A stretch of DNA of 64,000 bases from contig JAZDIV010000106.1 of assembly GCA_043804695.1 (NCBI GenBank), positions 344 through 64,343 on the forward strand, read 5' to 3'. A program made the translations under genes and the position numbers. This stretch comes from PVC group bacterium (GTDB taxonomy: Bacteria > Auribacterota > Erginobacteria > Erginobacterales > Erginobacteraceae). The stretch's first letter is position 1. The number at the start of each line of letters is the position of its first letter. The notes under the pieces were generated by a model. That model was not told the DNA's origin, searched no databases, and saw nothing but the letters and a program-made list of their open reading frames with translations. This document shows, piece after piece, positions 13,453 through 54,907 of the stretch.

Positions 13453-14910
13453 GTGAAAACGGCGCGGAAATCAACGCCGGAGACATCGTTGAAGTCGAAA
13501 ATAGTCATTCTCTATCTGATCATCGACCTGATCCTGATCGCCCTCTGCCTCTACCCCCCCTATGTTTTTAAGTACAATCCGGACGCTCTGGCGCGGATCA
13601 GCGCCCGCGGCACCCTGAAGGTGCTCTGGCTGCCCAATCTGGGGCAGCACTCGCTGATCTTCCTTTTCTGGGCGGTGCTGATCGTCATCCTTTTCCGGAT
13701 GTACAACCTCTACGCCACCGATCGGACCATCTCCTACCTGGACGAAGCGCTTTTAATCGTCCGGGCGCTTTTTCTGGCATTGCTGCCGGCCGCCGCCGCC
13801 GTCTTTTTTCTCCAGATCAAGATCTTCTCCCGGATCGTCTTCGTCATCCAGTCCTCTGCTCTCCTGATCTCTCTGACCTTCTGGCGGATGCTCAAGCGGT
13901 ATCTGGTCCGCCGCCGCGTCGCCCGGGGGTTCAACAACCAGCACGTTTTAATCATCGGGGCCGGGAAGGTGGGGTGGGCGCTGGCCCGGGAGGTGGCCAA
14001 GCACCCGTACCTGGGCCTCAAAGTGGTCGGCTTCCTGGACGACCGCCTGTCCGGTACGATTGGCGGTTACCCGGTGCTGGGCGGTTCCGACGACTTTGAA
14101 AAAGTGGTTAGCAAGCATTTCGTCGACGAGGTCCTGGTCTCCATTCCGTCCGAGCGGCGGCTGGTCGCGCGTTTGATCCTTTCCGCCCGGGAGCTGGGGA
14201 AGAGCATCCGGGTGGTCCCGGATCTTCTGAGCATGGGGATGGAAGGGATCAAGGCCGGCCATCTGGGGCTGATCCCCCTGCTGGAGTACTACAACAAGGG
14301 CCTGCACGGCGCCGACCTCTTCCTGAAGAGGTTTTTCGATATCGTGGTCTCCTTCCTGGCCCTGATCGTTTTGCTGCCGGTTTTTGTCGTCATCGCCGTG
14401 GCCATCATGCTGGATTCGCCCGGCCCGGTCTTCTACGTTTCGAAACGGAACGGAAAGAAGGGGAAGCTCTTCAACTTCTACAAGTTCAGGACCATGGCCA
14501 AGGACGCCGACAAGATGCTGGAGTCGCTCCGTCACCTCGATAAGACCGCCGGCCCGACCTTCAAGATGAAGAACGACCCCCGGGTCAGCCGGGTGGGGCG
14601 GTTTCTCCGGCGGTACAGCCTCGACGAGCTGCCCCAGCTCTGGAATGTCCTGAAAGGTGACATGAGCCTGGTCGGGCCCCGTCCCCCCACCCCCAACGAG
14701 GTGGAGAAGTACGCCCACTGGCAGCTGAGAAGGCTGGAGATCCGCCCGGGGCTGACCTGCCTCTGGCAGGTCAGGGGACGGAGCAACCTCTCGTTTCGGG
14801 AATGGATGAAGCTCGATATCTTCTATATCGAGAACTGGTCCTTCTGGCTGGACATCAAGATCATCCTCCGGACGATCGTGGTCGTGATCCGGGGCGAGGG
14901 GGCGTACTGA
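13453..14910 (+). CDS. polyprenyl-phosphate sugar phosphotransferase (priming phosphoglycosyl transferase, WbaP/EpsB-like)
   Basis: N-terminal TM helices, Rossmann-like segment ([14 protein letters not shown]) and a C-terminal bacterial sugar-transferase domain (KRFFDIVVS..., [39 protein letters not shown]). Confidence 0.9.
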
Positions 14911-15108
14911 GAAGCCGGAGTGATGGAGTGGTGGAGTATTGGGGTAATGGATAGGGCCTGGAGCTGGGTTAGTGGCGTGCTTCTTCCCGCCGCTCCATTA
15001 TTCCAACACTCCATATTAAGTCAACCGACGCTTGCGACCGCGCCGGGTCATCTCGTTTCTCCCATCCTACCGGGGAGATAGCTCTTTCATTGTTACCTCT
15101 GAGACGCG

Positions 15109-16791
15109 GTGATAATGATGAGATATAGATACAAAAAAATCCTCCCGGCGGTGGTGGTTCTTCTTTTTCTCTCTGTCGCCGCCAGCCGGCTTTTTTATAC
15201 CCCCCCCCTCCTGGGGAGCCGCTGGTACAACCTCCCGGGCCGTGTCTATGATTTCTTTGCCCACGTGTATTATTCCACCCGCTCGGACTGGCTGAAGTCC
15301 GGCGGACAGGAGGTCGCCTCCCGCCGGGCGTCAGCCCGAGCGGCCTGGCACCGCCCCTCCTGGTCCCGGGAGCTTTTAGGGATCGGGCCCGAGGATTCTT
15401 TGGGATTGGCCCGAGAGTATGCCGCCCTCGGTTTGAATTATGAAGCGGCCCGGCTTTTTCAAAAGGCCCTCCCCGACGTGCTTTCAGATGAGGACAAATC
15501 GTTGGAGATAGTATCCTACCTGGCGTTTTTTGATCAATGGTCCGATGTTGCCCGGGTGGCGGAAAAGCTGCTGAACGTGACACCGCGGTTACCCGAAGCG
15601 AATTACTGGTATGGGAGAGCGCTTCTGGAAACGGGTCGGCCCGGGGAGGCTCTCGAGTACCTCGAGAAGGCGGTTGGACATGCTCCCTTCCGCATCGACG
15701 CGCGCTATCAGGCCGCCCGGTCGGCGGAAAAATTGAATCAAAAAAACAGCGCCCGTTCCCGTTATGAAGAAGTCGTGGCGGAGATGCCGGGGCATCGGGA
15801 AGCGTGGAAGGCCCTGGATCGCCTCTATGGCGCCGGGGGAGAGGCAACCCGGCAAAAGTTTGCCCGCCGCCGCTGGACCGGGCTCACCCCGGCCATACCC
15901 CTGGAAGTTCATTCCCGAAACCGGTTTATCCTCCGGGGATACAGTTTATCCCCCGGGGACGTTCCAACCGGCGGGAAAATTGCTCTGGCTTTATTCCTGG
16001 AAGGGTGGGATTCTGGTTCCGCGCCTGTGCGGCCGGAGGCGGTTCTGATCTCACGTGCCTGCCCGCAAAGGATTTCCCGGAAAGGAGATGCGGTTGCCGT
16101 CCCGGCGACCGGTGAAGTGGCCGTCTCTGTGTTTGAGTGGGCGCTTCCTTCTGTTTTATATCCGGGGAGGGTTGATCTGGAAATCTCCTTCACTGACCCG
16201 GAGTCAGGGGTACCGCTGCGTTTAAACGGGGCGGAATCCCTGCCGATCGGTTCTTTTCTCTTGACGCCGGCCTGGATGGCCGCCCCCGGCCAGCCTGACC
16301 GGATAAATCAGCAGTTCGGGCCGGACGCATGGGCTCTGGGAAAGACGACATTCCTGGGACCCGGATCGGAACTGGATTATGTGCTCGACCGGGAAGAGCG
16401 GGCGGCGGCGATAGGACTTATCTCTTACGCTCATACCAGCGGATCGCTTCCGCAGGACAGCGTGCTGGCGCAGATTGTTGTTCAGACTGCGGAAGAGGGG
16501 GAAATTGTTTTCCCGGTCCGGGTCGGCAGCGAAACTGCGGAAGTCTGGTGGGAGTATTACCCGGCCGGTTACCGCCGGCACCGGCAGGCTCCCATTTTCA
16601 ACAGCTGGCCGGTTCATTCCGGTGAGCAGTCATTTCAGGCGCATGAATACTGGGCCGTTTTTCCCTTTTCCGGGCCTGCCACCATCCGGTCGCTGCGGCT
16701 GAGGAACATGACCCGGCGGAGCGGAATACATGTTGGCGATATTATCTTGATACCGCCCCGAGCAAAGGATGTCACTGCGGTGGAGCAATGA
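15109..16791 (+). CDS. membrane-anchored TPR-repeat protein with uncharacterised beta-rich C-terminal half
   Basis: N-terminal TM (ILPAVVVLLFLSVAA). TPR-like helices (ANYWYGRALLETGRPGEALEYLEKAV...ARYQAARSAEKL). No catalytic motif seen. Confidence 0.55.
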   Translation: MIMMRYRYKKILPAVVVLLFLSVAASRLFYTPPLLGSRWYNLPGRVYDFFAHVYYSTRSDWLKSGGQEVASRRASARAAWHRPSWSRELLGIGPEDSLGLAREYAALGLNYEAARLFQKALPDVLSDEDKSLEIVSYLAFFDQWSDVARVAEKLLNVTPRLPEANYWYGRALLETGRPGEALEYLEKAVGHAPFRIDARYQAARSAEKLNQKNSARSRYEEVVAEMPGHREAWKALDRLYGAGGEATRQKFARRRWTGLTPAIPLEVHSRNRFILRGYSLSPGDVPTGGKIALALFLEGWDSGSAPVRPEAVLISRACPQRISRKGDAVAVPATGEVAVSVFEWALPSVLYPGRVDLEISFTDPESGVPLRLNGAESLPIGSFLLTPAWMAAPGQPDRINQQFGPDAWALGKTTFLGPGSELDYVLDREERAAAIGLISYAHTSGSLPQDSVLAQIVVQTAEEGEIVFPVRVGSETAEVWWEYYPAGYRRHRQAPIFNSWPVHSGEQSFQAHEYWAVFPFSGPATIRSLRLRNMTRRSGIHVGDIILIPPRAKDVTAVEQ

Positions 16792-16954: not shown

Positions 16955-17947
16955 TTGCTGAAAAATATGATGGAAGCAGCTATAATCACAACTTACCGGT
17001 GTAATTGCCGTTGCGTGATGTGCAACATCTGGAAGCATCCGACCAGGGTTGAGGAGGAGTTCAAGCCGGAAATTCTAAAGAAACTGCCGCGGCTCGATTT
17101 TGCCAACCTCACCGGAGGCGAGCCATTTCTGAGAAATGACATCGGGGAGATCGTCTCTATCTTGAAGTCCCGTGCCCGGCGGATCGTTATCAGCACCAAC
17201 GGCTATTTCACGGACAAGATCATCAACCTGGTCCGGTCGGAGGGGGATATCGGGATCCGGATCAGCATCGAGGGCTTGCCCGCCGCCAACGATGAGCTCC
17301 GGGGGATCAAAGACGGCTTTGATCACGGTCTGAGAACCCTCCTGGAACTTCAACGGCTGGGGCTGAAAGATATCGGATTCGGGATTACCGTGTCAGACCG
17401 CAACGCCTGGGACATGCTGGAGCTCTACCAGCTGGCGAAGGCGATGAAGGTGGAATTCGCCACGGCGGCGGTGCATAATTCATACTATTTTCATAAAGGT
17501 GATAACGAGATACGCGAAAAAGGAACCGTCATAGGAAGTTTTGAGGAACTGGTCGAAGAACTGTTACGATCGCGAAGGCTGAAGAACTGGTTCCGGGCGT
17601 ATTTCAATCACGGCCTGATTAATTACATCAGAGGTAATCCGCGGCTGCTTCCCTGTGGAGCAGGGGAAGAGATGTTTTTCCTCGACCCCTTCGGAGAGAT
17701 CCGGCCCTGCAACGGGATGGACGAGGCTTCTTTTGAGACCAGCATGGGCAACCTGAATGAGCAGACATTCGAAGAGATATGGAACAGTGAACGTGGACGC
17801 TGGGTGAGGGAGAAGGCCGCCACCTGCACCAAGAACTGCTGGATGATCGGGACCGCCTCCCCGGCGATGAAGAAACACTTGGCAAAACCATTGACCTGGG
17901 TGTTCAAAAATAAATGTAGATTGATATTATCCGGCAGACGTATTTGA
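16955..17947 (+). CDS. radical SAM enzyme with Cys-rich (SPASM/twitch-like) C-terminus
   Basis: CNCRCVMC gives Cx3Cx2C at 17000-17023. GGEPFL. C-terminal Cys residues (LLPCGAG...IRPCNG...CTKNCW). Paralogue of the 26515 gene. Confidence 0.8.
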   Translation: MLKNMMEAAIITTYRCNCRCVMCNIWKHPTRVEEEFKPEILKKLPRLDFANLTGGEPFLRNDIGEIVSILKSRARRIVISTNGYFTDKIINLVRSEGDIGIRISIEGLPAANDELRGIKDGFDHGLRTLLELQRLGLKDIGFGITVSDRNAWDMLELYQLAKAMKVEFATAAVHNSYYFHKGDNEIREKGTVIGSFEELVEELLRSRRLKNWFRAYFNHGLINYIRGNPRLLPCGAGEEMFFLDPFGEIRPCNGMDEASFETSMGNLNEQTFEEIWNSERGRWVREKAATCTKNCWMIGTASPAMKKHLAKPLTWVFKNKCRLILSGRRI

Positions 17948-17957
17948 TTTTAAGGCA

Positions 17958-19118
17958 ATGACCCGTCATAAGATAAAAATTTTCGTTCTCGGCACCCGGG
18001 GCTTCCCTGATGTGCCGGGCGGGGTGGAGAAACACTGCGAACAACTCTATCCCCGCCTCATTGAACTGGGCTGTGATGTCACCGTCATCACCCGTTCTTC
18101 CTATATCCCCCCCGAACGACGGGTAAAGCAATGGAAGGGGGTCAAATTCATCTATCTCTGGTCGCTTAAAAATAAATACCTGGAAGCGATCGTTCACACA
18201 TTCCTGGGCATCTTTATCGCCCGTTTTCATTCCCCCGACATCCTGCACTTTCACGCGATCGGGCCGTCCATCCTCGCGCCCCTGGCAAAGGCATTGGGAT
18301 TGAAGGTGGTGGTTACAGACCACGGCCCCGATTATCTCCGTCAGAAATGGGGTAAACTCTCCCGGAGGATACTGATCCTGTCCGAGCGAATGGCGGTCGA
18401 ATTCGCTGATGAGATGATCGTGATCTCCTCGGGAATCAGGGAACTGATCGAGAGGAAGTATGGTCGGAAGGACATCCGGCTGATCCCGAACGGCGTCACT
18501 TTGCCCGAGCGCATCGCGCCCGGCGAAATGCTGGAAAGATTCGGGCTAAAACCGGGCCGGTATGCCATGGCCGCCTGCCGGTTTGTCCCCGAGAAAGGAC
18601 TGCTTGACCTGATCGCTGCCTATAAGAAGCTCCCGGACCCCGGCTTCCAGCTGGTGCTGGCCGGCGGGGCGGACCACGAGAATGACTGCAGCCGGGCCGT
18701 GAAAGCCGCCGCCCGCCGGGATGAAAGAATCGTACTTCCCGGCTTCATCTCCGGACACCCTTTGCAGGAACTCTTTTCCAACGCCGGTCTTTTTGTTCTT
18801 CCCTCCTATTACGAAGGGTTGCCGATAGCCCTCCTGGAGGCGATCAGCTATGGGTTGCCCGTTCTGGTCAGCGATATCCAGCCCAACCGGGAAGTGCCTC
18901 TGCCGGCCGGGAGGTATTTCCCGGTAGGCGATGTTGGGCGCCTGGCCGAGCAGATGGAGAGGCTTTTCAGACTGGGCATTACGGAAGATGAAAAGAAGAG
19001 CCAGAGAGAACTCCTGGAACGGCTTTACAACTGGGACCGGATCTCCGAAGAAACCGGGAACGTGTATAGAAATGTTCTGTTCGGCGAAGGTCCCGATACT
19101 CTACTTTTTCATGAATAA
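17958..19118 (+). CDS. glycosyltransferase family 4 (GT-B; DUF1972-type N-terminus)
   Basis: FVLGTRGFPDVPGGVEKH at the N-terminus. C-terminal EX7E region PSYYEGLPIALLEAISYGLPVLVSD. Confidence 0.85.
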   Translation: MTRHKIKIFVLGTRGFPDVPGGVEKHCEQLYPRLIELGCDVTVITRSSYIPPERRVKQWKGVKFIYLWSLKNKYLEAIVHTFLGIFIARFHSPDILHFHAIGPSILAPLAKALGLKVVVTDHGPDYLRQKWGKLSRRILILSERMAVEFADEMIVISSGIRELIERKYGRKDIRLIPNGVTLPERIAPGEMLERFGLKPGRYAMAACRFVPEKGLLDLIAAYKKLPDPGFQLVLAGGADHENDCSRAVKAAARRDERIVLPGFISGHPLQELFSNAGLFVLPSYYEGLPIALLEAISYGLPVLVSDIQPNREVPLPAGRYFPVGDVGRLAEQMERLFRLGITEDEKKSQRELLERLYNWDRISEETGNVYRNVLFGEGPDTLLFHE

Positions 19119-19210: not shown

Positions 19211-20158
19211 ATGGCTCAAGAGATTGATTTGAGAGCGTTGATAAAGCTGATCATCAGGCGAAAGAAGATAATTGTCGGCGGTACGCTGGGTTGCGTCATT
19301 CTGGCCTTCGCGGTTAGTTTTATAATCCCCGAGGCCTATGAATCGTCATTGATCCTGGAAGTGGGAAGGATTTATCTGTCCTCGCAAGCCTGGAAGCAGG
19401 AGCTGCAATTCATCGAGGAGCCGGAAGCGACGGCTGAAGTGATGGAAAGCTTCGGAATTCTGGACGAGGTCCGTCGAAAGCTGCGATTGGATGTGACATT
19501 AAAATCGCTGGGAAAACAGCTGGAGGTCAACACTTTTGTCAAGGACAAGGAGTACCTGCCCGTCCTGGAGATCATCTCCGAAGGCGAATCGCCGCAGCAG
19601 GCGGTCGATATTCTCAACACGCTGGCCGCGATGGTCATAGCCAGGCACACCGATAAATACCAGGTGTACCGGAAAGGCCTGGAGGAGAGAATAAAGTACA
19701 ATCAAGAGAAGATAGCGGCGTTTAAGAAAATAATCTCCGCTCAGGAAAAATACCGCGATCTCTCCCAGCAATATATAGATCAAGGCCAGATCAGTGCCGA
19801 TGAATTCGTAAAAGAACTGGGTAAGCTGGATTCTTCCTCCCCGTCCGCCGTGGATATGCTCTATCTCCAGGGTTCCGTTTTAACGGAAAAGCAGCAAGTC
19901 AGGGACCTGACCCGGTTCAAGGCGGAGATGGATATGCGGATCGGCCAGAACCAGAAGGAGATGGCGGATGCCGAGATCGACATTGTCGAACTGCAGAGCC
20001 GGTTGGAACTCTCGTCGCCCACCCGGATAATCTCCCCGGCGGTGCCGATAGACAAACCAGTGAAACCAAACCGGCCTCTCATCGTCCTGCTCGCCGCCGT
20101 CATCGGATTCGCTTTGATGATCCTGATAGTTGCCGGCCGGCAATACCTGCAAGAGTGA
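19211..20158 (+). CDS. Wzz-like polysaccharide chain-length determinant (no kinase domain)
   Basis: N-terminal Wzz pattern (LRALIKLIIRRKKIIVGGTLGCVILAFAVSFIIPEAYES), long coiled-coil middle and a C-terminal TM (PLIVLLAAVIGFALMILIV). Confidence 0.7.
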   Translation: MAQEIDLRALIKLIIRRKKIIVGGTLGCVILAFAVSFIIPEAYESSLILEVGRIYLSSQAWKQELQFIEEPEATAEVMESFGILDEVRRKLRLDVTLKSLGKQLEVNTFVKDKEYLPVLEIISEGESPQQAVDILNTLAAMVIARHTDKYQVYRKGLEERIKYNQEKIAAFKKIISAQEKYRDLSQQYIDQGQISADEFVKELGKLDSSSPSAVDMLYLQGSVLTEKQQVRDLTRFKAEMDMRIGQNQKEMADAEIDIVELQSRLELSSPTRIISPAVPIDKPVKPNRPLIVLLAAVIGFALMILIVAGRQYLQE

Positions 20159-21492
20159 AATTCCCCGGCGGTAAATTATTGTCCGGAGTCCGCGGCCGCC
20201 CTCTGGTCTGGGATACGATTACCACCACCTGGTGGGGATTAATCGGCCGGGCGGCAGGCTTCATGATCCCGTTCTTTATCGCCGCCTGGTTCGGGATCAG
20301 CGATGATACCGACGCTTTCTTCTTCTCCTACGGGGTGATCCTGTTTCTGGCCAATATCTTTGCCCCGGTTGTGGAGTACGTCATCGTGCCGTATATCGCT
20401 GAGGCGCGCCGGGCGGGGCGGGATATCGGCAGTTTGATCGGTGGTGTCCTGGGCATCAGCGGATTGGGGATAGCGATTCTGGAAGGGGCGCTGCTTTCTG
20501 TCATCAAGCCCGTTCTGGGGCTGGTAACCAGGTTTGATCAGCCGACCCTGCAGCTGGCGTATCAGCTGCTCCTGGAAACGGCACCCCTGATTATCCTCCT
20601 GGTCTGGACCGGGATCCTGAGCGGCACTCTGAACGCGTACCGTAAATTTGCCTTTCCCGCTGTTTCACCGGCTTTCCGGGCGATAGTGAATTTAGGGATC
20701 ATTTTTGCCTTTCGGAATACGCTCGGAGTGCACGCGATTGCTCTGGGATACGTGGTGGGAGAGGCCGGCCGGATGATTATCCTGCTGGGGGTTATTAAAA
20801 AACTGAAGTTGATCCGGCTCCGGTTCAGCTTCATCCCGGGTCCCGTTCTCCGGGATTTTTTTCGGAAGGCTTCTTATCAGACGGTTGCGATGATCGCGAT
20901 CTGGCTCAAACCGATAATAGACCGGGCGATGGCTTCCTGGCTGGGGGAAGGGAATGTCTCGTTACTGTATTACGCCGACCGGCTTTATATTATACCGGTT
21001 ACCTTCATCTGCTCCGGACTGATGGCCACCACCCTTTCACACTGGAGCACCCGGTTCTATGAGTCACCCCGGAGAACCCTGAAGGAGGATGTAAACCGGG
21101 GGATCAGGATCGTGGGTGTCCTGACCGTTGTGATCACGGTTTTTTTACTACTTTTTTATCGTCCGATCGCCCGGATTGCCTTTGAAAGAGGCGCTTTTGA
21201 TCCCGCCCAGGTTCCCGAAGTTCAGCGGATCTGGTTTTTCTATCTGCTGGGCCTGATTCCGTACATAATCGCCCGGATCTACTTCCAGGCCCATCTGGTT
21301 TTAATGAACACCCGGTTTCTCATGATGTATTCGTTTTGTTTAAACGGGGCGGGCATAGGGTTGAATTATCTATTAATGAAGCGGTTCGGTGTCGCCGGAA
21401 TAGCCCTGGCGACGACGGTAAGTTACCTGTTCGCCGCCATCGGGCTGGGCTTTTATTTCTACCGAAAGCTGACATTTTCCCCTGATCAATAA
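20155..21492 (+). CDS. MOP-superfamily flippase (MurJ/MviN/Wzx-like)
   Basis: Polytopic protein. N-terminal pattern GRAAGFMIPFFIAAWFGISDDTDAFFFSYGVILFLANIFAPVVEYVIVPYIAE resembles MurJ. GTGA overlap with the Wzz-like gene. Confidence 0.75.
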   Translation: MKFPGGKLLSGVRGRPLVWDTITTTWWGLIGRAAGFMIPFFIAAWFGISDDTDAFFFSYGVILFLANIFAPVVEYVIVPYIAEARRAGRDIGSLIGGVLGISGLGIAILEGALLSVIKPVLGLVTRFDQPTLQLAYQLLLETAPLIILLVWTGILSGTLNAYRKFAFPAVSPAFRAIVNLGIIFAFRNTLGVHAIALGYVVGEAGRMIILLGVIKKLKLIRLRFSFIPGPVLRDFFRKASYQTVAMIAIWLKPIIDRAMASWLGEGNVSLLYYADRLYIIPVTFICSGLMATTLSHWSTRFYESPRRTLKEDVNRGIRIVGVLTVVITVFLLLFYRPIARIAFERGAFDPAQVPEVQRIWFFYLLGLIPYIIARIYFQAHLVLMNTRFLMMYSFCLNGAGIGLNYLLMKRFGVAGIALATTVSYLFAAIGLGFYFYRKLTFSPDQ

Positions 21493-21535: not shown

Positions 21536-21585
21536 TTAACCCGATTTATGACTGCCTGCCGACAGGCAGTCATAAATCGGGTTAA
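21536..21585. repeat. perfect 23-bp-stem hairpin (4-nt loop)
   Basis: TTAACCCGATTTATGACTGCCTG-ccga-CAGGCAGTCATAAATCGGGTTAA, between the flippase and the B12-radical SAM gene. Confidence 0.9.
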
Positions 21586-21601
21586 TGGAGAGCGAGAGTC
21601 T

Positions 21602-25028: not shown

Positions 25029-25075
25029 TTCTTATTATTAATCCGACCGTTGTAGTATTTACAACAAGGATTGCA

Positions 25076-25154: not shown

Positions 25155-25205
25155 ATGTCCATACAATTATGGACTGACTAATAACTCGAAGGAAAAATAA
25201 GATTA

Positions 25206-26486: not shown

Positions 26487-26514
26487 GGGCATCGGGTGGC
26501 GGCCGAAGCCCTGA

Positions 26515-47863: not shown

Positions 47864-47892
47864 TTGACATCAAATAGGGCCCTGCATATAGT
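47864..47892 (+). promoter_or_regulatory. near-consensus sigma70 promoter TTGACA-17-TATAGT
   Basis: TTGACA at 47864-47869, TATAGT at 47887-47892, ATG at 47903 (10 nt after the -10). The mRNA would be leaderless or have a very short leader, with no SD. Confidence 0.6.
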
Positions 47893-47902
47893 ACGGTTAT
47901 AT

Positions 47903-49159
47903 ATGCAGCCAATAGAACAAATGAGTTCCAAGTTCTATGACCGGTTTCTGCGATCTCGTCTGGAACCCGGCGGATCTGCCGCCTCCGGCCGGCGCGGCCG
48001 GAACAAAGTGGTGTTGCTTTTCGGGGCCAGACAGACCGGAAAATCAACCCTATTGAACCACTGCGTCGGAGCGGGAAGAACTACATTCGTTGTCAATCTG
48101 CAGGATCGGCGGCAGAGACGGCGTTACGAAGCGGAAGTCGGGTTGCTGGCGAAAGAGATTGAGGCCGACGATAGCATTGACACGGTATTAATCGATGAAA
48201 TTCAGAAAGTTCCCGAGATGCTTGAGGACATCCAGTATCTGTATGATAAAGATCCCCGGCGGCTTCGTATTTTTCTTAGCGGCAGTTCGGCCAGACAACT
48301 GAAGCGCCGGTCTTCCAATCTTCTGCCCGGCCGGGTTCAGAGTCTTCTCTTGACGCCGGTACTGCAGGCGGAGCAGAGGAAATGCGTTTTGCTGCCTCTT
48401 CCGATGGGCCGAAAAGAACGGTTCCCCGTTCGGCCTCTTAACGAGTATTTAATCTATGGCAACCTGCCGGGACTTTATCAGGAGGACAAGGTTTCCTGGG
48501 CAGAGACCCTGGCAGCGTACGTGGAACTGTATATTGAAAACGAAATTCGGCAGGAAAACATTGTCCATGATATGGGGGCTTTTTTAAGATTTATTCGTCT
48601 GGCCGCGCTGGAATCGGGGCAATATGTGAACTATACAAAACTGTCCGGCGTGATCGGGGTGGCCGTTAACACGATGCGGAACTTCTATCAAGTTCTGGAA
48701 GATACCTATCTGGGCATCAGGATCCAGCCCTTCGCGCAGAGCCGTAAAAGGATTATCTCCGCCCCCCGGTTTTTGATCTTCGATCTGGGGGTCCGCCACC
48801 TCCTGGCGGAACTGCCTTTAAGCGAGGCACTGGTGGCATTGGATCCGGGCCATCTCTTCGAACAGTGGGTGATGGCTGAATTATATTACCGGTGCCGCTG
48901 CGCGGGCAAAGGTTACCGGATCTCAACCTGGAAGACGGTAACCGGAGCTGAAGTAGATGTTGTTCTGGAAACCCCTGAGACGGTGATTCCCATCGAAATT
49001 AAGTGGACGGAAAGACCGTCCCGCCAGGACACCAGGCATGTCGAAACCTTTCTGGACGTGCACGGGAAGCGCGCTCAAAGAGGATACATTATCTGCCGCT
49101 GTTTGCGGAAGCAAAGACTGAGTGACCGGGTGACCGCTTTGCCGTGGAACGAATTTTGA
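47903..49159 (+). CDS. AAA-family ATPase with DUF4143-type C-terminal domain
   Basis: Walker A LLFGARQTGKSTLL. Walker B VLIDEIQK. C-terminal PRFLIFDLGVRHLL...FEQWVMAEL...VDVVLE resembles the AAA_14 + DUF4143 architecture. Confidence 0.8.
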   Translation: MQPIEQMSSKFYDRFLRSRLEPGGSAASGRRGRNKVVLLFGARQTGKSTLLNHCVGAGRTTFVVNLQDRRQRRRYEAEVGLLAKEIEADDSIDTVLIDEIQKVPEMLEDIQYLYDKDPRRLRIFLSGSSARQLKRRSSNLLPGRVQSLLLTPVLQAEQRKCVLLPLPMGRKERFPVRPLNEYLIYGNLPGLYQEDKVSWAETLAAYVELYIENEIRQENIVHDMGAFLRFIRLAALESGQYVNYTKLSGVIGVAVNTMRNFYQVLEDTYLGIRIQPFAQSRKRIISAPRFLIFDLGVRHLLAELPLSEALVALDPGHLFEQWVMAELYYRCRCAGKGYRISTWKTVTGAEVDVVLETPETVIPIEIKWTERPSRQDTRHVETFLDVHGKRAQRGYIICRCLRKQRLSDRVTALPWNEF

Positions 49160-49204: not shown

Positions 49205-49966
49205 ATGAACTTTTGTATCGTTATCCCCATGCACAATGAGGAAGGAAATGTCACCGGAATCGTCCGGGAGGTTAACAAGGCCCTTGATGATAATGGATAC
49301 CGGGCGGATATTATTCTGGTTGACGACGGGAGCGAGGACGATACGGCGTCCGAGATCGAACGGGCCGGGAAGGAGCATCCCAATATTGTCGTTCGCCGGC
49401 ACGAACGGAATGCCGGTTTCGGGGCCGCGATTAAAACAGCCATGAAGGTGGCATTTGAAGGCGGATATATTTTTGCCGTCTTCATGGATGCCGACTTCAC
49501 CATGCACCCGGGATACATCCGGCACTTCTATGAGAAGATGGCCGAGGGGTATGACTTTGTGATAGGTTCCCGATTTCTCGAAGGAGGTGGGATGAAGAAT
49601 GTCCCCGGCTGGCGGAAATTTTTCTCGCTGGCAGGAAGAGCGGTCTTCCGGATTTGTTTCCGCCTCCCCCTGACCGATTACACCCAGGGCTTCCGGGCAA
49701 TCCGGGTAAAGATCATTGAGCAGATGCGGCTTTCGGAGGGAGGATTCCCGATTCTGATCGAGGAGATCTACCAGGCCCGACGCTTCACGAATAAATTTTC
49801 CGAGATCCCCTTCGTTCTGACCGGACGGGAAACCGGCCGCTCCAAATTCAGCTACACCCCGAAGGTCCTCTGGGATTATCTGAAATACGCGGGGAAGGCG
49901 CTGGCGGGAAAACGCGTTTTTAATCGTCGGAGCGGGAATAATCAACACAGTGAAGAAGAGGAATGA
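49205..49966 (+). CDS. GT2 polyprenyl-phosphate glycosyltransferase (DPM1/ArnC/GtrB-like)
   Basis: CIVIPMHNEEGNV...ILVDDGSEDDT...FMDADFTMHP...GSRF. Confidence 0.85.
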   Translation: MNFCIVIPMHNEEGNVTGIVREVNKALDDNGYRADIILVDDGSEDDTASEIERAGKEHPNIVVRRHERNAGFGAAIKTAMKVAFEGGYIFAVFMDADFTMHPGYIRHFYEKMAEGYDFVIGSRFLEGGGMKNVPGWRKFFSLAGRAVFRICFRLPLTDYTQGFRAIRVKIIEQMRLSEGGFPILIEEIYQARRFTNKFSEIPFVLTGRETGRSKFSYTPKVLWDYLKYAGKALAGKRVFNRRSGNNQHSEEEE

Positions 49967-50760
49967 ATGCCGGTTGTCGGTGATCGTGCCGGCCTATACC
50001 GGGAATGAATCGCTCCTCCGGAATATTTTCTTTTTAACACATAATTGCCCACGGCGGCGGCCGTCCGGTAGCCCCTCTCCCGGAGCAGTTCGGCCAGAGT
50101 GGTGAATTCCCCGGGGAGGGGAACCCGGCTCTTCAGGAACAGGAGATAGCCGCCCTGTTCTCCCTCCATCGCCCACCCGCCTTCTATCGGATCAAGCAGT
50201 CCGGAAATGATCGGCAGACGCCTTTTTTCGAGCACGATGGCGTCGACCCCGTTCTCGATCGATTGCCGGAAAGCCATCAGGTCTCCCGGTTCCCGTTCCC
50301 CGGACTGGACCACTCTCTGCGCCGCCGCCCGCCGGTCGCCTTCCCGGGCCAACCCGGCGTTCCGGAAGATGTGCCGGGTGATGAGCGGACGGCTGACTTC
50401 CAGCCTGACGGTAGGATTCATCAGGCAGAGTACCCAGGCTACTTCCTCCGGGGCGAGAAGATGCCGGTTCCCGTCCAGGAGAAGGAACGCCAGGGCGGCG
50501 GGGCCGGCGGCCAGTGAGATCAGGCGTCCGAGACCGAGTTCCCGGTAGAGCAGGATGTAGACGATCGGGCCCAGGCCTGCCACGATGAAAGCGGCCATGG
50601 TAAGATGGTAGGCGATGGTCCAGGCTGAGAAGAAGAGGAGAGCGAGTTCGGCGATGATGAATGAACCCGGGTCGGGATCGAATGGCCTCCCCGGATCGAC
50701 TCTCAACGGATACGTATTGGGAAGAGCGGGGCTTTCCTCTTTTCTGTGATTTATTTTCAA
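49942..50760 (-). CDS. hypothetical membrane protein; C-terminus resembles a sulfatase-fold fragment (possible truncated paralogue)
   Basis: Two or three TM helices. FTTLAELLRERGYRTAAAVGN resembles the sulfatase TLAE.L...GY.T segment, but the catalytic motifs are missing. The ORF converges on and overlaps the GT2 gene. Confidence 0.3.
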   Translation of the reverse strand: MKINHRKEESPALPNTYPLRVDPGRPFDPDPGSFIIAELALLFFSAWTIAYHLTMAAFIVAGLGPIVYILLYRELGLGRLISLAAGPAALAFLLLDGNRHLLAPEEVAWVLCLMNPTVRLEVSRPLITRHIFRNAGLAREGDRRAAAQRVVQSGEREPGDLMAFRQSIENGVDAIVLEKRRLPIISGLLDPIEGGWAMEGEQGGYLLFLKSRVPLPGEFTTLAELLRERGYRTAAAVGNYVLKRKYSGGAIHSRYRPARSPTTGIHSSSSLC

Positions 50761-50784: not shown

Positions 50785-52170
50785 TCAGCGGGAAGCCGAT
50801 AGCTGGCGCCCCGGGCAGGGAGCCGGCTTGAAGCAGCTTTCATATAATCGCCGGCAGATATTTCTGTAATGATGGTGACGGTAAAACCAGTCCATCTCCC
50901 GCCTCTCCGTGTAGATTTCGCCACCGCTTCTTTTTTGCTCCAATAAATGAAGCAGCGCTTTCTGTATACTCTCCCGGCTATTAATGTCCGCCAGGTAGGC
51001 GGCGTTGGTTTTCTTTAAAAGCTTTTCGGCGCACCCGTTCTTATGCAAAGGAAGCAGGGCGAGAATCGGCTGTCCGCTCTCGATCAGCTCGAATATCTTC
51101 CCGGTCATCGTGATCTCGGATTTCGGCCAGTCGCCGATGATGAAGAGAATGACGTCATGAGTGAAATACTGCCTGAAAATTTCACCTCTCGGCACCCCGC
51201 CCCGGTAACTGACCGCCTTTTTCAAGGAATCGGGCCATTCTTTCCACTGTCTTTCATGTTGCCCGAAGATGTTGATCTCGATCTCGCCGGGGGCGATTTT
51301 ATCATTATCAATCAAGCTCCGTACCCCGTCCAAAAACGGCCTGATGTCCTGCGTCCCGAATAACGAACCGGCGTACATGATCCGGAGGACCTTTCCGGCG
51401 GGCGGTTGTTTCGCTCTCCGCCATTTTTCCAACCCGGCGATTTCATCATCGGAGATGCCGTTGGGGATATACCTGAATTTTTCGGAAGAGAGTCCCGGTA
51501 TCCGCCGGATAAAATGCCCGATCATCTCCCGGGAGATGACAACGATAGCATCGCAGACCGGCAAGACCTTCTGCTCGAGTTTGTTGGCAGTACGATCGTG
51601 CAGGTGACCGGCCATTCTTCTATAAATGCTTCTCCATCTGTTATACGGGTGGATGAGACGGTTCCGGGCGGCGTAAGAGACCGGCCCTTCCACCCATTCA
51701 TCCCGGTATTCAACAATTACCCGTTTCCCGGGATACTGCTTTTTCAGAGCGTACGCGGTCTTCAGGAGGGGGGAGAACGGCCCCAGGGAAAGATACAGTA
51801 TGTCGTAATTGTGAAGCCCGTTCAGCCGCCGGACCGCCCTCCCCAGCCTTTTTTCCTCTTTCCCGAGATAAACAGATCTGTTGAGAAAATGGAAAAAAGC
51901 GTTCTTCTCGGCGAATAGATGCTTTTCCAAAGTGTTCTTATAAAGCTTAATATACCTGACGTTTCCCAGGTCGACCGGGAAACGGTCCTGAACGGGGAGT
52001 TCCCGGTTGAAGGAGCCGGTCAGAACATCCAGCTGCAGGTCGCGGTATCGGCTCATTTCCTGGTAAATGTTCATGATTCTGCGTGCCGACACGATGGTAT
52101 TGGGGTAGAACCAGTAGGCAACCAGGGCGATTTTAACTTTTCCGGCAGGAGTCATGGATACTCCAATCAT
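50785..52170 (-). CDS. GT-B-fold glycosyltransferase (GT4-like)
   Basis: KIALVAYWFYPN at the N-terminus. C-terminal LRIMYAGSLF...TGKIFELIESGQPILAL resembles the GT-B donor-binding region. Confidence 0.55.
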   Translation of the reverse strand: MIGVSMTPAGKVKIALVAYWFYPNTIVSARRIMNIYQEMSRYRDLQLDVLTGSFNRELPVQDRFPVDLGNVRYIKLYKNTLEKHLFAEKNAFFHFLNRSVYLGKEEKRLGRAVRRLNGLHNYDILYLSLGPFSPLLKTAYALKKQYPGKRVIVEYRDEWVEGPVSYAARNRLIHPYNRWRSIYRRMAGHLHDRTANKLEQKVLPVCDAIVVISREMIGHFIRRIPGLSSEKFRYIPNGISDDEIAGLEKWRRAKQPPAGKVLRIMYAGSLFGTQDIRPFLDGVRSLIDNDKIAPGEIEINIFGQHERQWKEWPDSLKKAVSYRGGVPRGEIFRQYFTHDVILFIIGDWPKSEITMTGKIFELIESGQPILALLPLHKNGCAEKLLKKTNAAYLADINSRESIQKALLHLLEQKRSGGEIYTERREMDWFYRHHHYRNICRRLYESCFKPAPCPGRQLSASR

Positions 52171-52458
52171 GACTGATGTCTCCGGTTATGGTTATTATGG
52201 CAGATAAACCCAGCGTCCCCGCCGCTGTGGCGGCGGTCCTCATGAAGAGGATATTTCAAATTCCGGTTGTCGTGCCCGAGCGCTCTTCCCAATACCTGCG
52301 GAGCGCTCTCAGACCGGTGGATATATTAAAAGCGCGGCTGACATTGAACAAGGTAAATATGGTTCTGCCCTTCCGGCCGCCGGACCGATATTGCTGGATA
52401 GAACCGGTTCGTGGTGTATAATGTCTTTTTAAAAATCACCCAGTACCGGTGTTATGAG

Positions 52459-53478
52459 ATGGAACTTGCGTCGATAATTGTCCTGACCTGCAATGGACAA
52501 AAGCACTTGGAGGAATGCCTCGGTTCCCTGGAGGGGCAGTCATATTCTCGCCGGGAAATCATCCTGGTGGTGAACGGCTCCACGGACGGTACGGCGGATT
52601 TTGTCCGAAAGCGGTACGGCGAGACCGTCCGGGTGATCGAGCTGCCCGCGAACATCGGGTATACCGGGGGGAACAACGCCGGTCTGAAGACGGCCCGGGG
52701 AGAGTACATCGCCCTTCTCAACGACGACACCCGGACCGATCCGAAATGGCTGGAGGAGATGATCGGCGCTCTGCGCCGGCACCCGGGGTACGGGCTGGCC
52801 GCCGGCAAGATCCTGTCATATTACCAGCCGGAGATCATTGACAATGTCGGGCACCTGTTCTATCGCGACGGCACTTTCCGGGGCCGCGGCCGGCTGGAAA
52901 AAGACCGGGGCCAGTACGACCGGGAAGAGGAGATACTCTCCCCCAGCGGGTGCGCGTTCCTGATCCGGAAAGAAGCTCTGGTCGAGGTGGGGCTGTTTGA
53001 CGACGATTTTTTTATTTATGGCGACGATGCCGAGCTATCCCTGCGGATGCGCCTGGCGGGCTGGAAGGCTCTTTACGTGCCGTCGGCGGTGGTCTATCAT
53101 AAATACTCGGCGACGACCGGGGCCTATTCTCCCCTCAAGGCGTTCCTGGTCGAGCGGAACCGCATCTGGCTGACGATCAAGTGCTTCCCGCCCGGGGCGC
53201 TGCTGCTGGCGCCGATTTTCGCGGCTCTGCGTCTCCTGCTTCAGGCTTACGGGGTTTTATCCGGAAAAGGCGCCGCCGGCGCCTTCGCGCGCCGGTATTC
53301 GGCTTTCGCCCTCCCGGGCATTTTGCTGAAAGCTCACCTGGCCGCCCTGGCGGGATCGGCCCGGATGTGGCGAAAGCGCCTGGAGATCAAACGGCTGCAG
53401 AAAGTGAGCGACCGCGAGTTTTACGGCTGGTTGAAGAGGTTCCGCCTCTCTGCCCGGGAACTGGCGTTGAAAGAATAA
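52459..53478 (+). CDS. glycosyltransferase family 2
   Basis: ASIIVLTCNGQKHLEECLGSLEGQSY...IILVVNGSTDGT...LLNDDT...YGDDAELSLR. Start set at ATG 52459. Confidence 0.85.
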   Translation: MELASIIVLTCNGQKHLEECLGSLEGQSYSRREIILVVNGSTDGTADFVRKRYGETVRVIELPANIGYTGGNNAGLKTARGEYIALLNDDTRTDPKWLEEMIGALRRHPGYGLAAGKILSYYQPEIIDNVGHLFYRDGTFRGRGRLEKDRGQYDREEEILSPSGCAFLIRKEALVEVGLFDDDFFIYGDDAELSLRMRLAGWKALYVPSAVVYHKYSATTGAYSPLKAFLVERNRIWLTIKCFPPGALLLAPIFAALRLLLQAYGVLSGKGAAGAFARRYSAFALPGILLKAHLAALAGSARMWRKRLEIKRLQKVSDREFYGWLKRFRLSARELALKE

Positions 53479-53538: not shown

Positions 53539-53613
53539 GTCATTGCGAAGCGAAGCAATCTATTGTTCACCAAAGAATTGAGATTGCTTCGTCACTTCGT
53601 TCCTCGCAATGAC
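53539..53613. repeat. REP-like palindromic element, copy 2, nested inside an outer 15-bp inverted repeat (53498-53512 / 53629-53643)
   Basis: GTCATTGCGAAGCGAAGCAATC...GATTGCTTCGTCACTTCGTTCCTCGCAATGAC. The outer arms are TTACTAAGGAGAGCA / TGCTCTCCTTAGTAA. Confidence 0.8.
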
Positions 53614-53776
53614 ATGTAACCTATTGTATGCTCTCCTTAGTAATTTACCTGCGAAAAAATAAGAATGTTCAAGCACTGAACTTGTATCGCTGACTTATTT
53701 ATTTATAATAAATTCGTGTAATTCGCGTAATTCGTAGTTTTATTTAGTTACCCGAGTAAAGCGAAGGTTAAGTTCT

Positions 53777-54907
53777 ATGAGAATCGGCATCAACGCATTA
53801 TACCTTATCCCCGGGCGGGTGGGGGGGAGCGAGATCTATCTCCGCCGGCTGATCGGGGCCCTCTCCCGGATCGACCGGGAGAACGAGTACATCATCTTCA
53901 CCAACCGGGAGAACAGCGGCACCTTCGAGATGGGCGCCAATTTCCGGGAACATCACTGCCCGGTCCGGGCGCTGATCCGTCCGCACCGGATCGCCTGGGA
54001 ACAGCTGGTGCTCCCGTACCGCGCCCGCCGGCGTCGCCTGGATGTCCTTCACTCTCCCGGTTTTGTCGCCCCCCTTTTATCCACCTGCCCATCGGTGATC
54101 ACCATTCTCGACCTGATCTATCTCGACTTTCCGGAGACCTTCCCTTTTCTGGCCCGGCAGTGGATGCGCTTCCTGGTCAGTCATTCGGCCCGCCGGGCCC
54201 GGGCCATCATCGCTCTCTCCCGCTACTCCCGGGACGAGATCCTCTGGGGACTCGACGTTCCCTTCTGGAAGGTCCAGGCGATCTACCTGGGGGGCGGCGA
54301 GGATGAATCGGCCCCCGTCTCCCCGGAAGAGGGGGAGCGGGTTCTCAGCGCCCACGGGATCAGACCTCCTTTCATTCTCGCGGTCGCCGCGGCTCACCCC
54401 CACAAGAATCTCGGCCGGCTGGTGGAATCCTATTCTCACCTGGGGGAGGAGCAGGGCCGATATCAACTGGTGGTTGTGGGCGTGAAACACAACCGGTACT
54501 ATCAGCGGCTGGAGCACAGGATCGGCCGCCTGGAGCTGGGAGAGAAGGTCGTCTTCACCGGCTGGGTCTCCGAGCGGGACAAGGAAGTCATCTACACCCG
54601 GGCCGCGATGACGATCTTCCCCTCGCTTCTGGAAGGATTCGGTCTCCCGGTCCTGGAGAGCATGCGGTATGGGATTCCCGTTGCCTGCTCGGACCTCCCC
54701 TCCCTGGCCGAGGTGGCCGGCGGGGCCGCGTACTTATTCGACCCCTATTCGGTGGAAGCGATAACCAACTCCCTCCGGGAGTGTCTGGGGGATGACGCTC
54801 TTCGATCCCGCCTGATCGAGAAGGGCCGGGAGCACGCGGCTCATTTCACCTGGGAAGAGACCGCCCGGCAGACCCTGGAGGTCTACCGGCAGGCGGCCCG
54901 GCCCTGA
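53777..54907 (+). CDS. glycosyltransferase family 4
   Basis: GGSEIY at the N-terminus. EX7E region PSLLEGFGLPVLESMRYGIPVACSD. Confidence 0.85.
   Translation: MRIGINALYLIPGRVGGSEIYLRRLIGALSRIDRENEYIIFTNRENSGTFEMGANFREHHCPVRALIRPHRIAWEQLVLPYRARRRRLDVLHSPGFVAPLLSTCPSVITILDLIYLDFPETFPFLARQWMRFLVSHSARRARAIIALSRYSRDEILWGLDVPFWKVQAIYLGGGEDESAPVSPEEGERVLSAHGIRPPFILAVAAAHPHKNLGRLVESYSHLGEEQGRYQLVVVGVKHNRYYQRLEHRIGRLELGEKVVFTGWVSERDKEVIYTRAAMTIFPSLLEGFGLPVLESMRYGIPVACSDLPSLAEVAGGAAYLFDPYSVEAITNSLRECLGDDALRSRLIEKGREHAAHFTWEETARQTLEVYRQAARP

Follow-up and report, generated by a model that had tools for sequence, protein, structure and literature searches.

A probable strain-variable surface-polysaccharide island carrying radical SAM cassettes in an Auribacterota genome

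Site, borders and composition of the island

The 64,000-nucleotide stretch of DNA analysed here (the window) comes from an Auribacterota (Erginobacter-like) genome and holds, between floA and a conserved GT2–GT4–bmp block, a long run of glycan genes. With reasonable confidence, we read positions 13,453 to ∼52,200 (∼39 kb) as a strain-variable surface-polysaccharide island. The locus was annotated by Pfam and NCBIfam scans of 30 open reading frames (ORFs) at 13.4–56 kb of the window, and the main flank ORFs were likewise scanned against Pfam. Genes are referred to by number and lie on the plus strand unless stated otherwise; the gene named 43749 is the product of 43800–45200. Loci from other genomes carry L numbers. 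All retrieved homologues are sequences from metagenomes or metagenome-assembled genomes (MAGs), in which binning errors are possible. The window FloA is 93% identical to a protein of Candidatus Erginobacter occultus (phylum Ca. Auribacterota, PVC group), and the nearest named homologue of the radical S-adenosylmethionine (SAM) protein 26515 (69% identity) comes from the same organism.

The upstream flank carries obg, proB, nadD, rsfS and argS, then nfeD and floA, and the downstream flank bmp and gcvH/PA/PB. In L090 (GCA_964587835.1), whose backbone proteins are 56–92% identical to those of the window, floA is followed directly by orthologues of the glycosyltransferases 52411 (74% identical) and 53777 (75%), then by bmp and gcvH/PA/PB, with no island. 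The spacer between floA and the GT2 gene in L090 aligns to window positions 12785–12853 and 13210–13265, and then from 52480 onward. Because floA adjoins the 52411 and 53777 orthologues in L090, the 13.45–52.2 kb segment is an insertion-type island at a conserved site, some 39 kb that are present in the window genome and absent from L090. An earlier reading made from the sequence alone (hereafter the sequence-only reading) had described a single, almost unidirectional glycan locus at 13453–54907 with an unusual load of enzymes other than glycosyltransferases. That description stands for the single co-located locus, its enzyme load and its left end; only two genes within the block, 49942 and 50785, lie on the minus strand. 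Its right end has to be moved, as comparison with a relative places the end of the variable block at ∼52.2–52.4 kb. The GT2 gene 52411 (52411–53478; 86% identical in L007) and the GT4 gene 53777 (53777–54907; 85% in L007) thus belong to the conserved backbone outside the island.

The right edge of the island is formed by a weak GT4-like protein (50785–52170, minus strand; Glyco_transf_4 27 bits, below cutoff). Next to it, a protein with three transmembrane (TM) helices (49942–50760, minus strand) is an island member in this genome only and has no match in Pfam, NCBIfam or PADLOC. Both genes are absent from L007. No direct repeats of at least 11 nt, no tRNA and no integrase mark the island borders. 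The window as a whole contains no tRNA and no match to an Rfam family, and so no cobalamin riboswitch.

Base composition agrees with an origin from several sources. The guanine-plus-cytosine (GC) fraction is 0.45–0.53 at 23–34 kb compared with 0.60–0.67 in the flanks, and at third codon positions (GC3) it is 0.55–0.60 for genes 23088 to 33093 compared with 0.77–0.85 for 13453, 52411, 53777 (0.81) and bmp. The low-GC stretch (21.5–34.5 kb) coincides with the first of two radical SAM cassettes described below and its neighbours. Mosaic assembly, which the sequence-only reading had proposed after noting an AT-rich segment at 23–35 kb, is supported by synteny and by the low-GC core, in GC and GC3 alike.

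Assembly genes and glycosyltransferases

The island opens with a priming polyprenyl-phosphate glycosylphosphotransferase (phosphoglycosyl transferase, PGT) of the WbaP/WcaJ type (13453–14910), which combines Bac_transf (246 bits) and CoA_binding_3 domains. It scores 449 bits against TIGR03025 (cutoff 296) and is the sole island protein that passes a curated NCBIfam cutoff. L090 lacks the PGT, which reaches 86% identity in both L087 and L088 and forms a conserved 5′ anchor of the island. The following gene (15109–16791) encodes a tetratricopeptide-repeat (TPR) protein with TPR Pfam matches and a single TM helix as N-terminal membrane anchor; it has orthologues of 41–43% identity at the same position in L087 and L088, and possibly serves as a scaffold for export or assembly. 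A Wzz-type chain-length determinant with two TM helices and no kinase domain (19211–20158; Wzz PF02706, 40 bits, plus GNVR) overlaps the gene for a MurJ/MOP-family flippase of Wzx-like role (20155–21492; PF03023, 168 bits; below the TIGR01695 MurJ cutoff). The flippase lies within the island and is missing at that site in L090. A putative polymerase resembling Wzy and O-antigen ligases, with ∼10 predicted TM helices, is encoded at 33093–34481 and is 54% identical in L002 (GCA_036681025.1).

Several glycosyltransferases lie among these genes and the cassettes. The GT4 enzyme 34459 (34459–35679; 79% identical in L002) is a paralogue of the cassette GT4 30257 (37% identity). An exact-sequence look-up of 30257 gave no match, probably because of a differing start call. 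Two GT-C enzymes lie outside the cassettes, each with seven predicted TM segments: a small PMT_2/DUF2079-like protein (25206–26486; PMT_2 32 bits) and a larger one with a C-terminal domain resembling a carbohydrate-binding module (CBM) (37896–40007; PMT_2 60 bits). The latter has no PDB sequence match; its orthologue in L001 carries PMT_2 and CBM_4_9 domains. Between the C-terminal domain of 37896 and the CBM_4_9-like insert of secreted protein 35663 there is 39% identity, which argues that both act on the same glycan.

Gene 40341 (40341–41624) encodes a polyprenyl-phosphate GT2 fused to a class I SAM methyltransferase; its best PDB match is 5mlz (7e-22), followed by ArnC and GtrB. The 5mlz structure is the dolichol-phosphate mannose synthase of Pyrococcus and is the top PDB match for both 40341 and the cassette GT2 49205. 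All NCBIfam matches of the two are below cutoff (AglJ and dolichyl-P hexose transferase for 40341; AglJ, PpgS, PgfS and ArnC for the two together). Such GT2 enzymes load a single sugar on polyprenyl phosphate for extracytoplasmic transfer by a GT-C enzyme, as in the Gtr, Arn and GacI/GacL systems.

Pfam and NCBIfam largely bear out the inventory of the sequence-only reading: the PGT, the Wzz-like protein, the MurJ-like flippase and the Wzy-like protein (its Wzy_C match sub-threshold), three GT2 enzymes (40341, 49205, 52411), three PMT_2 GT-C enzymes (25206, 37896, 41602), five radical SAM proteins, three sulfatase-fold proteins, a CapK-like enzyme, a pyruvyl transferase, a methyltransferase domain and one short-chain dehydrogenase/reductase (SDR) are all found. 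It had counted six GT-B enzymes; there are four clear GT4 proteins (17958, 30257, 34459, 53777) and one weak one (50785). It had also passed over the TPR protein 15109, the ATPase 47864 and the membrane protein 49942. An exopolysaccharide (EPS) locus of the PEP-CTERM/exosortase type was considered as an identity for the block and dropped, as XrtA-associated models matched weakly and only below threshold.

A cassette with CapK-like and pyruvyl transferase genes

The five radical SAM proteins (16955, 26515, 21548, 43749 and 45214) all have an intact CX3CX2C motif. Three of them belong to a set of genes that we call cassette 1: a B12-binding radical SAM protein, a second radical SAM protein, a CapK-like ligase, a pyruvyl transferase and a GT4, usually accompanied by an additional pair of a radical SAM/SPASM protein and a GT4.

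The first gene of cassette 1 (21548–23095) combines a B12-binding domain (PF02310) with Radical_SAM (PF04055). It is 72–73% identical in L096 and L097 and 44% in L098, and there always directly adjoins a radical SAM gene of the 26515 type. The 26515 protein (26515–27693; Radical_SAM) probably starts ∼17 codons downstream of the annotated position. It has a twitch/SPASM-like set of auxiliary-cluster cysteines, with five additional cysteines invariant across 62 homologues. The best folds for its AlphaFold2 model (pLDDT 91) are SkfB, anSME (second), BlsE and MoaA, at a TM-score of ∼0.55. As generic SPASM/twitch neighbours at that similarity, these folds point to no particular reaction.

The third gene (27606–29030; probable start near 27741) encodes a PaaK/CapK-like adenylate-forming enzyme that matches NCBIfam DVU_1553/PaaK below cutoff and PaaK in the PDB (5.6e-25). 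Its relatives carry the Pfam domain CapK_C and adjoin the radical SAM gene in L092, a short JGI contig, and in L096–L099. Scanning metagenomes with the CapK-like protein yielded no more than four loci, of which one (L092) was informative. The CapK-like gene is followed by that of a polysaccharide pyruvyl transferase (28993–30246; PF04230, 127 bits), which likewise comes after the CapK-like gene in L096–L099, and by the GT4 30257 (30257–31492; 52% identical in L097, 46% in L098). In L097 the corresponding GT4 directly follows the pyruvyl transferase; in L098 a methyltransferase gene lies between the two. As a separate observation, 27606 and the methyltransferase domain of 40341 show sub-threshold matches to NCBIfam DVU_1553 (AMP-dependent ligase) and DVU_1556 (methyltransferase); these families take their names from neighbouring Desulfovibrio genes, which hints, at the level of family models, at a related uncharacterised cassette in Desulfovibrio.

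The radical SAM/SPASM enzyme of the additional pair (16955–17947; Radical_SAM plus SPASM) has SkfB and the sugar decarboxylase BlsE as its top PDB sequence matches. It is paired with the following GT4 (17958–19118; Glyco_transf_4 plus Glycos_transf_1; 72–74% identical in L001 and L089). Genes of the 16955 type are 69–82% identical in L001, L089 and L097, each followed by a GT4 (33–74% identical), and Pfam gene calls alone indicate the same pair in L099.

Cassette 1 recurs outside the window genome. We compared four long contigs, which were picked by identity band, contig size or source name and not by gene context: L096 (Ca. Erginobacter occultus), L097 (Logan SRR29324583; 38 kb, 31.5% GC, its NCBI copy named Aminicenantia), L098 and L099 (a Thermoanaerobaculaceae MAG). 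On all four, the 26515-type gene adjoins a B12-binding radical SAM gene (of the 21548 type by tblastn in L096–L098) and the CapK-like gene, with the pyruvyl transferase after them. Gene order is the same in L096–L098 and permuted in L099, where the cassette adjoins a PGT and a Wzy_C gene. In L097–L099 a GT4 comes next, and on two of the four contigs the radical SAM/SPASM–GT4 pair follows as well. In cassette order, identities are 72/67/61/53% in L096 and 73/59/57/47/52% in L097, which adds 69% for the 16955-type protein. In the window copy, 23088 and 25206 interrupt the cassette between the B12-binding radical SAM gene and 26515, and the radical SAM/SPASM–GT4 pair is displaced to 16.9–19.1 kb; 23088 is missing from cassette 1 in L096–L099. 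Horizontal acquisition of cassette 1, across phyla, is suggested by the B12-binding radical SAM protein, which is 73% identical between L097, at 31.5% GC, and a genome of ∼60% GC whose backbone in the window lies at ∼60–65%, and by the local GC dip.

A cassette with B12-binding radical SAM, SDR and GT-C genes

Cassette 2 consists of a GT-C, two B12-binding radical SAM proteins, an SDR and a GT2 resembling dolichol-phosphate-mannose (DPM) synthase. The GT-C gene (41602–43632; PMT_2 59 bits; seven predicted TM segments) shares 38% identity with 37896 along the N-terminal part, and a GT-C gene lies directly upstream of the B12-binding radical SAM gene in L001–L003, L006 and L089. The first radical SAM protein, 43749 (43800–45200; PF02310 plus PF04055; 466 aa), was modelled with AlphaFold2 (pLDDT 92). 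Its best folds are MgmA/QCMT (9ccb), TsrM and the sugar diol-dehydratase AprD4; the model reaches TM-scores of 0.66–0.76 against 9ccb, 6wte and 6fd2 and superposes on MgmA, TsrM, OxsB and TokK. The 9ccb structure is the glutamine C-methyltransferase MgmA/QCMT (PMC12931638). The second radical SAM protein (45214–46638; PF02310 plus PF04055) is 25% identical to 43749 and, at 79–91% identity in L001, L007 and L089, is the best-conserved gene of the island.

The sugar epimerase/dehydratase of the SDR family (46856–47812; PF01370, 201 bits) is 74–81% identical in relatives and has LegB-, GalE- and RmlB-type NCBIfam matches, all under cutoff. The last gene of the cassette encodes a small polyprenyl-phosphate GT2 (49205–49966; 5mlz 4e-26, then ArnC and GtrB), 73–80% identical in relatives. 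It stands directly after the SDR gene in L002, L007 and L089; a GT-C gene intervenes in L001. In the window the two are separated by an ATPase of the AAA_14/DUF4143 type (47864–49159), which has a match (E 1.5e-64) to PDC-S01, a candidate phage-defence family of PADLOC. Since 47864 is missing between the SDR and GT2 genes in all four relatives compared (L001, L002, L007, L089), it is an insertion in cassette 2; from this distribution it looks like a recent, lineage-specific one, and it is probably not a glycan gene. GT-C, B12-binding radical SAM, SDR and GT2 genes are otherwise conserved in L001–L003, L007 and L089 at 72–91% identity. The place between the first radical SAM gene and the SDR gene is taken either by a variable gene or by the second radical SAM gene; the latter precedes the SDR gene in L001, L007 and L089 and not in L002 or L003.

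The 43749 family extends well beyond these relatives. When GTDB species representatives were scanned, 368 matches were confirmed; the 80 best loci were read and supplied the neighbour statistics with a simple ORF caller. Because tblastn undercounts GT-C neighbours (8 of 85 loci), the immediate neighbours were scanned against Pfam. Among 140 ORFs flanking the 43749-family gene there are 27 GT2 genes, 15 PMT_2 GT-C genes and 12 further B12-binding radical SAM genes, and flanking ORFs also match related PMT and TMEM260-like models. Other genomes supplied 59 loci of 12 kb or longer, of which 34 contain at least two B12-binding radical SAM paralogues and 19 at least three, and 41 have at least one glycosyltransferase by tblastn. 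Record titles among the best 80 loci include Omnitrophota, Elusimicrobiota, Patescibacteria/Candidate Phyla Radiation (CPR), Smithella, Nitrospirota, FCPU426 and Planctomycetes, and, from the DPANN archaea, Nanoarchaeota, Woesearchaeota and Pacearchaeota. The sequence-only reading had regarded the combination as rare. The 19 of 59 loci with at least three such paralogues contradict this: multi-radical-SAM glycan clusters are common in uncultured lineages, and the window is thus a good example and not an oddity. Separately, four Elusimicrobiota/Omnitrophota MAG contigs (L082, L031, L046, L062) hold five to seven B12-binding radical SAM paralogues within ∼21 kb. GT2 matches are interspersed in the arrays of L082 (with a GT4 as well), L031 and L046, and none was detected in L062.

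Sulfatase-fold proteins

Three island proteins have the sulfatase fold. Gene 23088 (23088–25028) encodes a five-TM protein with an extracytoplasmic sulfatase-fold domain and S-L-P-T-H at the nucleophile motif. The protein encoded at 31623–32972 has no signal peptide and is cytoplasmic (T-N-P-S-L; 67% identical in L002, 50% in L087); it is a member of the alkaline-phosphatase superfamily. The third (35663–37726; T-K-P-S-V; 57–61% identical in L001, L002 and L096) is secreted and carries the inserted CBM_4_9-like domain.

S1 sulfatases have C/S-x-P-x-R at the nucleophile, which supplies formylglycine. None of the three proteins matches this signature: each has Thr or Ser and none has the Arg, with His at +4 in 23088. 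The metal motifs, an N-terminal Asp ligand and (S/T)-(A/S)-D-H-G(-E), are retained. All aligned island-associated homologues (L001, L002, L021, L087, L096, L097) share W-T-x-P-[SA]-x. Two minus-strand sulfatase-fold genes beside the L089 island keep the Thr and not the Trp, so that Thr is conserved in all the aligned homologues, which come from seven related loci. Within the alkaline-phosphatase superfamily, a Thr nucleophile is typical of the phospho-transfer branch (LtaS, EptA/MCR, NPP). The Thr or Ser and the missing Arg imply that 23088, 31623 and 35663 are probably phosphotransferases or hydrolases rather than sulfatases. Among the decorations that the sequence-only reading had offered for the polymer, phospho-substitution is accordingly favoured over sulfate chemistry, the sulfatase-fold proteins being without the formylglycine motif. 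Its architecture makes 23088 a candidate phosphotransferase of the LtaS/EptA/GacH kind; it matches the LtaS and EptA models weakly and in part (39 and 35 bits), and its nucleophile is Ser, not Thr. Conversely, 31623 and 35663 have Thr at the nucleophile but no TM domain.

Island versions in related genomes

Different versions of the island occupy the same site in relatives. On contig_94974, of which L087 and L089 are two parts, floA is 95% identical and the island content at the same site is different. That contig has a PGT (86%), a TPR protein, Wzz, a flippase, a cytoplasmic sulfatase-fold gene, a GT4 and a methyltransferase, and also a radical SAM/SPASM protein (82%) with GT4 (74%), two GT-C enzymes, two B12-binding radical SAM proteins (78% and 91%), an SDR (81%) and a GT2 (80%). 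It is without 21548, 23088, 25206, 26515, 27606, 28993, 34459, 35663, 40341 and 47864. L088, from the same sample as L087, carries a 21548 orthologue as well as an additional Polysacc_synt flippase; L096 is another variant, and the genes are rearranged in yet other ways in L001, L002 and L007. O-antigen and capsule loci behave in this way, keeping their site and their ends while a centre of lower GC is swapped. Gene comparison thus shows island content swapped at one locus within the phylum, which would vary the surface glycan.

Surface glycans set phage susceptibility, adhesion and antigenicity, and the insertion of a candidate defence gene (47864) in the island fits phage-driven diversification. 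In L002, the glycan locus has an aldehyde dehydrogenase gene and genes for bacterial microcompartment shells (CsoS1D_N/BMC, BMC, EutN) directly downstream (18.9–21.4 kb), and a GtrA-family gene separates the two loci.

Proposed pathway and alternatives

The gene content, the island, the recurrence of its cassettes and the lost sulfatase motif are shown by the comparisons above, while we infer each chemical step of the pathway from family membership. On this basis, the island most likely makes one Wzx/Wzy-type heteropolysaccharide, a reading in which we place reasonable confidence. The PGT would start the repeat unit and GT4 enzymes would extend it on the cytoplasmic face; the MurJ-family protein would flip it, and the Wzy-like and Wzz proteins would polymerise it. 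Three recurrent decoration modules would plug into this core. For cassette 1 as a whole, a low-confidence conjecture is that the GT4 adds a sugar, which receives a pyruvate-derived carboxylate from the pyruvyl transferase; an amide or ester could then be formed by the adenylating enzyme, and the radical SAM enzymes could C-methylate, oxidise or decarboxylate the substituent. In cassette 2, two GT2 enzymes would make polyprenyl-phosphate monosaccharides, and the SDR and the two B12-binding radical SAM enzymes would alter the sugar, with C-methylation or deoxygenation as the likeliest change, before GT-C enzymes transfer it to the polymer outside the cytoplasm. The sulfatase-fold proteins would transfer phospho-groups onto the glycan or hydrolyse them from it.

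Several observations weigh against a single polymer made in this way. The Wzy_C match of 33093 (26.5 bits, E 6e-6) is under the gathering score of 31.7, and the protein may be a polymerase or a ligase. No match to a Wza/outer-membrane polysaccharide export (OPX) exporter, Poly_export or a Wzc kinase appeared in the Pfam scans, which covered the main flank ORFs and the 30 ORFs of the locus; neither a separate O-antigen ligase nor a GtrA-type flippase was found in the window, whose intergenic gaps are too small for GtrA. The PGT alone passes an NCBIfam equivalog cutoff, so that any sugar identity or radical SAM reaction named here is a candidate. AprD4 is an aminoglycoside diol-dehydratase with the same fold as 43749 that does not use cobalamin; since it is an equally good structural match, methylation by 43749 is not assured. 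The sulfatase-fold proteins are nearest in sequence to true S1 sulfatases and not to LtaS/EptA, and the Ser of 23088 is in principle convertible to formylglycine. Placement in the Auribacterota likewise draws on named matches for a few proteins and is best taken as probable. Finally, in L004 and L005 a GT2 gene adjoins the 43749-family gene, with a further radical SAM gene and a GT-C gene within 5 kb and no PGT or Wzy-like gene, and loci with CPR or DPANN titles have a GT2, sometimes a GT-C, near the B12-binding radical SAM gene and no Wzy match (flippases were not screened); L004, L005 and these loci together gave one PGT match only. A B12-binding radical SAM module without Wzy in distant genomes can serve other acceptors, possibly also here.

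These distant loci are one ground for supposing that two or more independent systems lie side by side, with a Wzx/Wzy polymer made by one set of genes and cassette 2 and 25206 glycosylating proteins or lipids. Sub-modules also move independently among relatives, and PMT_2 includes protein O-mannosyltransferases and the lipid A modifier ArnT. We nonetheless consider such a division unlikely, because cassette 2 lies within the same island as the Wzx/Wzy genes in five Auribacterota-type contigs, on the same strand and with short gaps, because the entire block is gained or lost as a unit relative to L090, and because the CBM-like domain that GT-C 37896 shares with secreted 35663 points to a glycan acceptor. 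The sequence-only reading had asked whether the block might be several separately conserved loci merely juxtaposed here; the modules are indeed conserved separately elsewhere, which answers this in part, yet always in glycan contexts.

It is decidedly improbable that the block partly degrades or remodels sulfated glycans, with genuine sulfatases matured by anSME-like SPASM/twitch radical SAM enzymes. In 31623, 35663 and all related-island homologues the nucleophile is Thr, which is not convertible to formylglycine, and the Arg at +4 is missing; 23088, which keeps Ser, has His where sulfatases have that Arg. S1 sulfatases are indeed the top sequence matches of these proteins, anSME is the second-best fold of 26515, and Auribacterota MAGs have been described as sulfatase-encoding (PMC9324843). 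However, the anSME model is not among the best 25 NCBIfam matches listed for 16955 (of 53) or 26515 (of 37), and the genes that accompany the 26515 family are the CapK-like and pyruvyl transferase ones. On three of the four long contigs a gene with the sulfatase fold does lie within a few genes of the 26515 type, though never as its direct partner, and none occurs in the part of L099 that was read. Pfam scans found no glycoside hydrolases in the block. The pairing of anSME with sulfatases was rejected on the nucleophile motifs, the likeness of 26515 to anSME (TM-score 0.53) being generic.

Slimmer still is the chance that the radical SAM genes form a RiPP (a peptide made on the ribosome and modified after translation) or cofactor pathway embedded in the locus: their top NCBIfam and PDB likenesses include SkfB, ApyD and PqqE (RiPP) and BchE, NirJ and AhbC/D (tetrapyrrole), but far under the family cutoffs, the gaps are too short for a further gene save one larger gap with ORFs of only 42–75 aa (no dedicated precursor-peptide search was made), and the nearest partners in every related locus read are glycosyltransferases, pyruvyl transferase, SDR and flippases. 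The same families recur beside glycosyltransferases in many genomes, which disposes of the worry in the sequence-only reading that these genes might be a stray cofactor pathway.

Beyond the single-polymer reading, we put forward as a tentative joint proposal, somewhat less likely than not, that both cassettes carry out undescribed glycan chemistry and that the Thr-type proteins are phospho enzymes. Cassette 2 would stand for radical SAM tailoring of GT-C-bound sugars (C-methylation, deoxygenation or rearrangement), widespread to the point of including CPR and DPANN by record title, and cassette 1 for a new carboxylate-derived substituent of surface polysaccharides, built by pyruvyl transferase, adenylating enzyme and two radical SAM enzymes. 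The cassettes are portable sets of five to seven genes and candidates for new sugar modifications. Their recurrence points to uncharacterised modifications that are apparently widespread in uncultured microbes. If the phospho assignment is true, Thr-nucleophile enzymes are perhaps being miscounted as sulfatases in metagenomic surveys now. Sulfatase-fold proteins with Thr in the formylglycine position should not be counted as sulfatases in MAG surveys of sulfated-polysaccharide degradation.

Flanking genes

Three features of the upstream flank are recorded as side observations. Glutamate 5-kinase (1372–2510) appears to be split, with AA_kinase (1372–2127) and PUA (2043–2510) in different overlapping frames; this could stem from a frameshift or an assembly error, or the gene could be genuinely split. 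A 642-aa DUF3604 protein (6001–7929, minus strand) beside nfeD–floA is 67–78% identical in all relatives. Upstream of nfeD–floA, a small DUF6922 protein overlaps an AbiEii nucleotidyltransferase; this pair (8321–9210), which resembles type IV toxin–antitoxin or abortive-infection systems, occurs in L087, L088, L090 and L091 and was not seen in L086.

Comparison with known systems

In the searchable literature we found no description of B12-binding radical SAM proteins in polysaccharide, GT-C, CPR or DPANN contexts, and nothing relevant on CapK with radical SAM and pyruvyl genes or on a Thr-type sulfatase-fold clade. The Auribacterota paper (PMC9324843) makes no mention of these loci.

The radical SAM proteins of the island with a B12-binding domain resemble known cobalamin radical SAM enzymes (MgmA/QCMT, TsrM, TokK, CysS and the GenK type), and AprD4, in their N-terminal B12-binding Rossmann domain and CX3CX2C core; cobalamin-dependent radical SAM enzymes and relatives that act on sugars and small molecules have been reviewed (PMC12931638). 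Unlike these, the island enzymes share only 17–23% identity with them, pass no NCBIfam equivalog cutoff, and sit in surface-glycan clusters, not in antibiotic, cofactor or methanogenesis contexts. The sulfatase-fold proteins have the fold of S1 formylglycine sulfatases, their N-terminal Asp ligand and the (S/T)-(A/S)-D-H-G metal motif, but all members of these islands have T-x-P-x-(L/V/H/Y), or S-x-P-x-H in 23088, at the nucleophile.

The combination of GT2 enzymes similar to DPM synthase, ArnC and GtrB with GT-C enzymes recalls the GtrA/B/C, ArnC/ArnT and GacI/J/K/L systems. It differs from these in that no GtrA-type flippase was found in the window and that B12-binding radical SAM and SDR genes lie between the GT2 and GT-C genes. 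Like GacH and LtaS, 23088 is a membrane-anchored alkaline-phosphatase-superfamily protein with five TM helices and its catalytic domain outside, whereas the sulfatase-fold domains of the island are closer in sequence to S1 sulfatases. GacH is said to be the glycerol-phosphate transferase of the group A carbohydrate, working with GacI/J/K/L.

The closest overall parallel is with Wzx/Wzy loci for O-antigen, capsule and EPS (e.g., the enterobacterial ones), with which the island shares a PGT, GT4 and GT2 enzymes, a MOP flippase, Wzz, a putative Wzy-like protein and a pyruvyl transferase, as well as a fixed chromosomal site, content that differs among close relatives and a GC content under that of the backbone. 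Unlike those loci, no Wza/OPX protein or separate ligase is seen in the window, the site can be empty (L090), and the island carries five radical SAM proteins, three GT-C enzymes and three sulfatase-fold proteins of the Thr/Ser type. The architecture is therefore a known one, a Wzx/Wzy island with extracytoplasmic decoration, and it differs from that kind in the radical SAM cassettes and the Thr-type sulfatase-fold clade.

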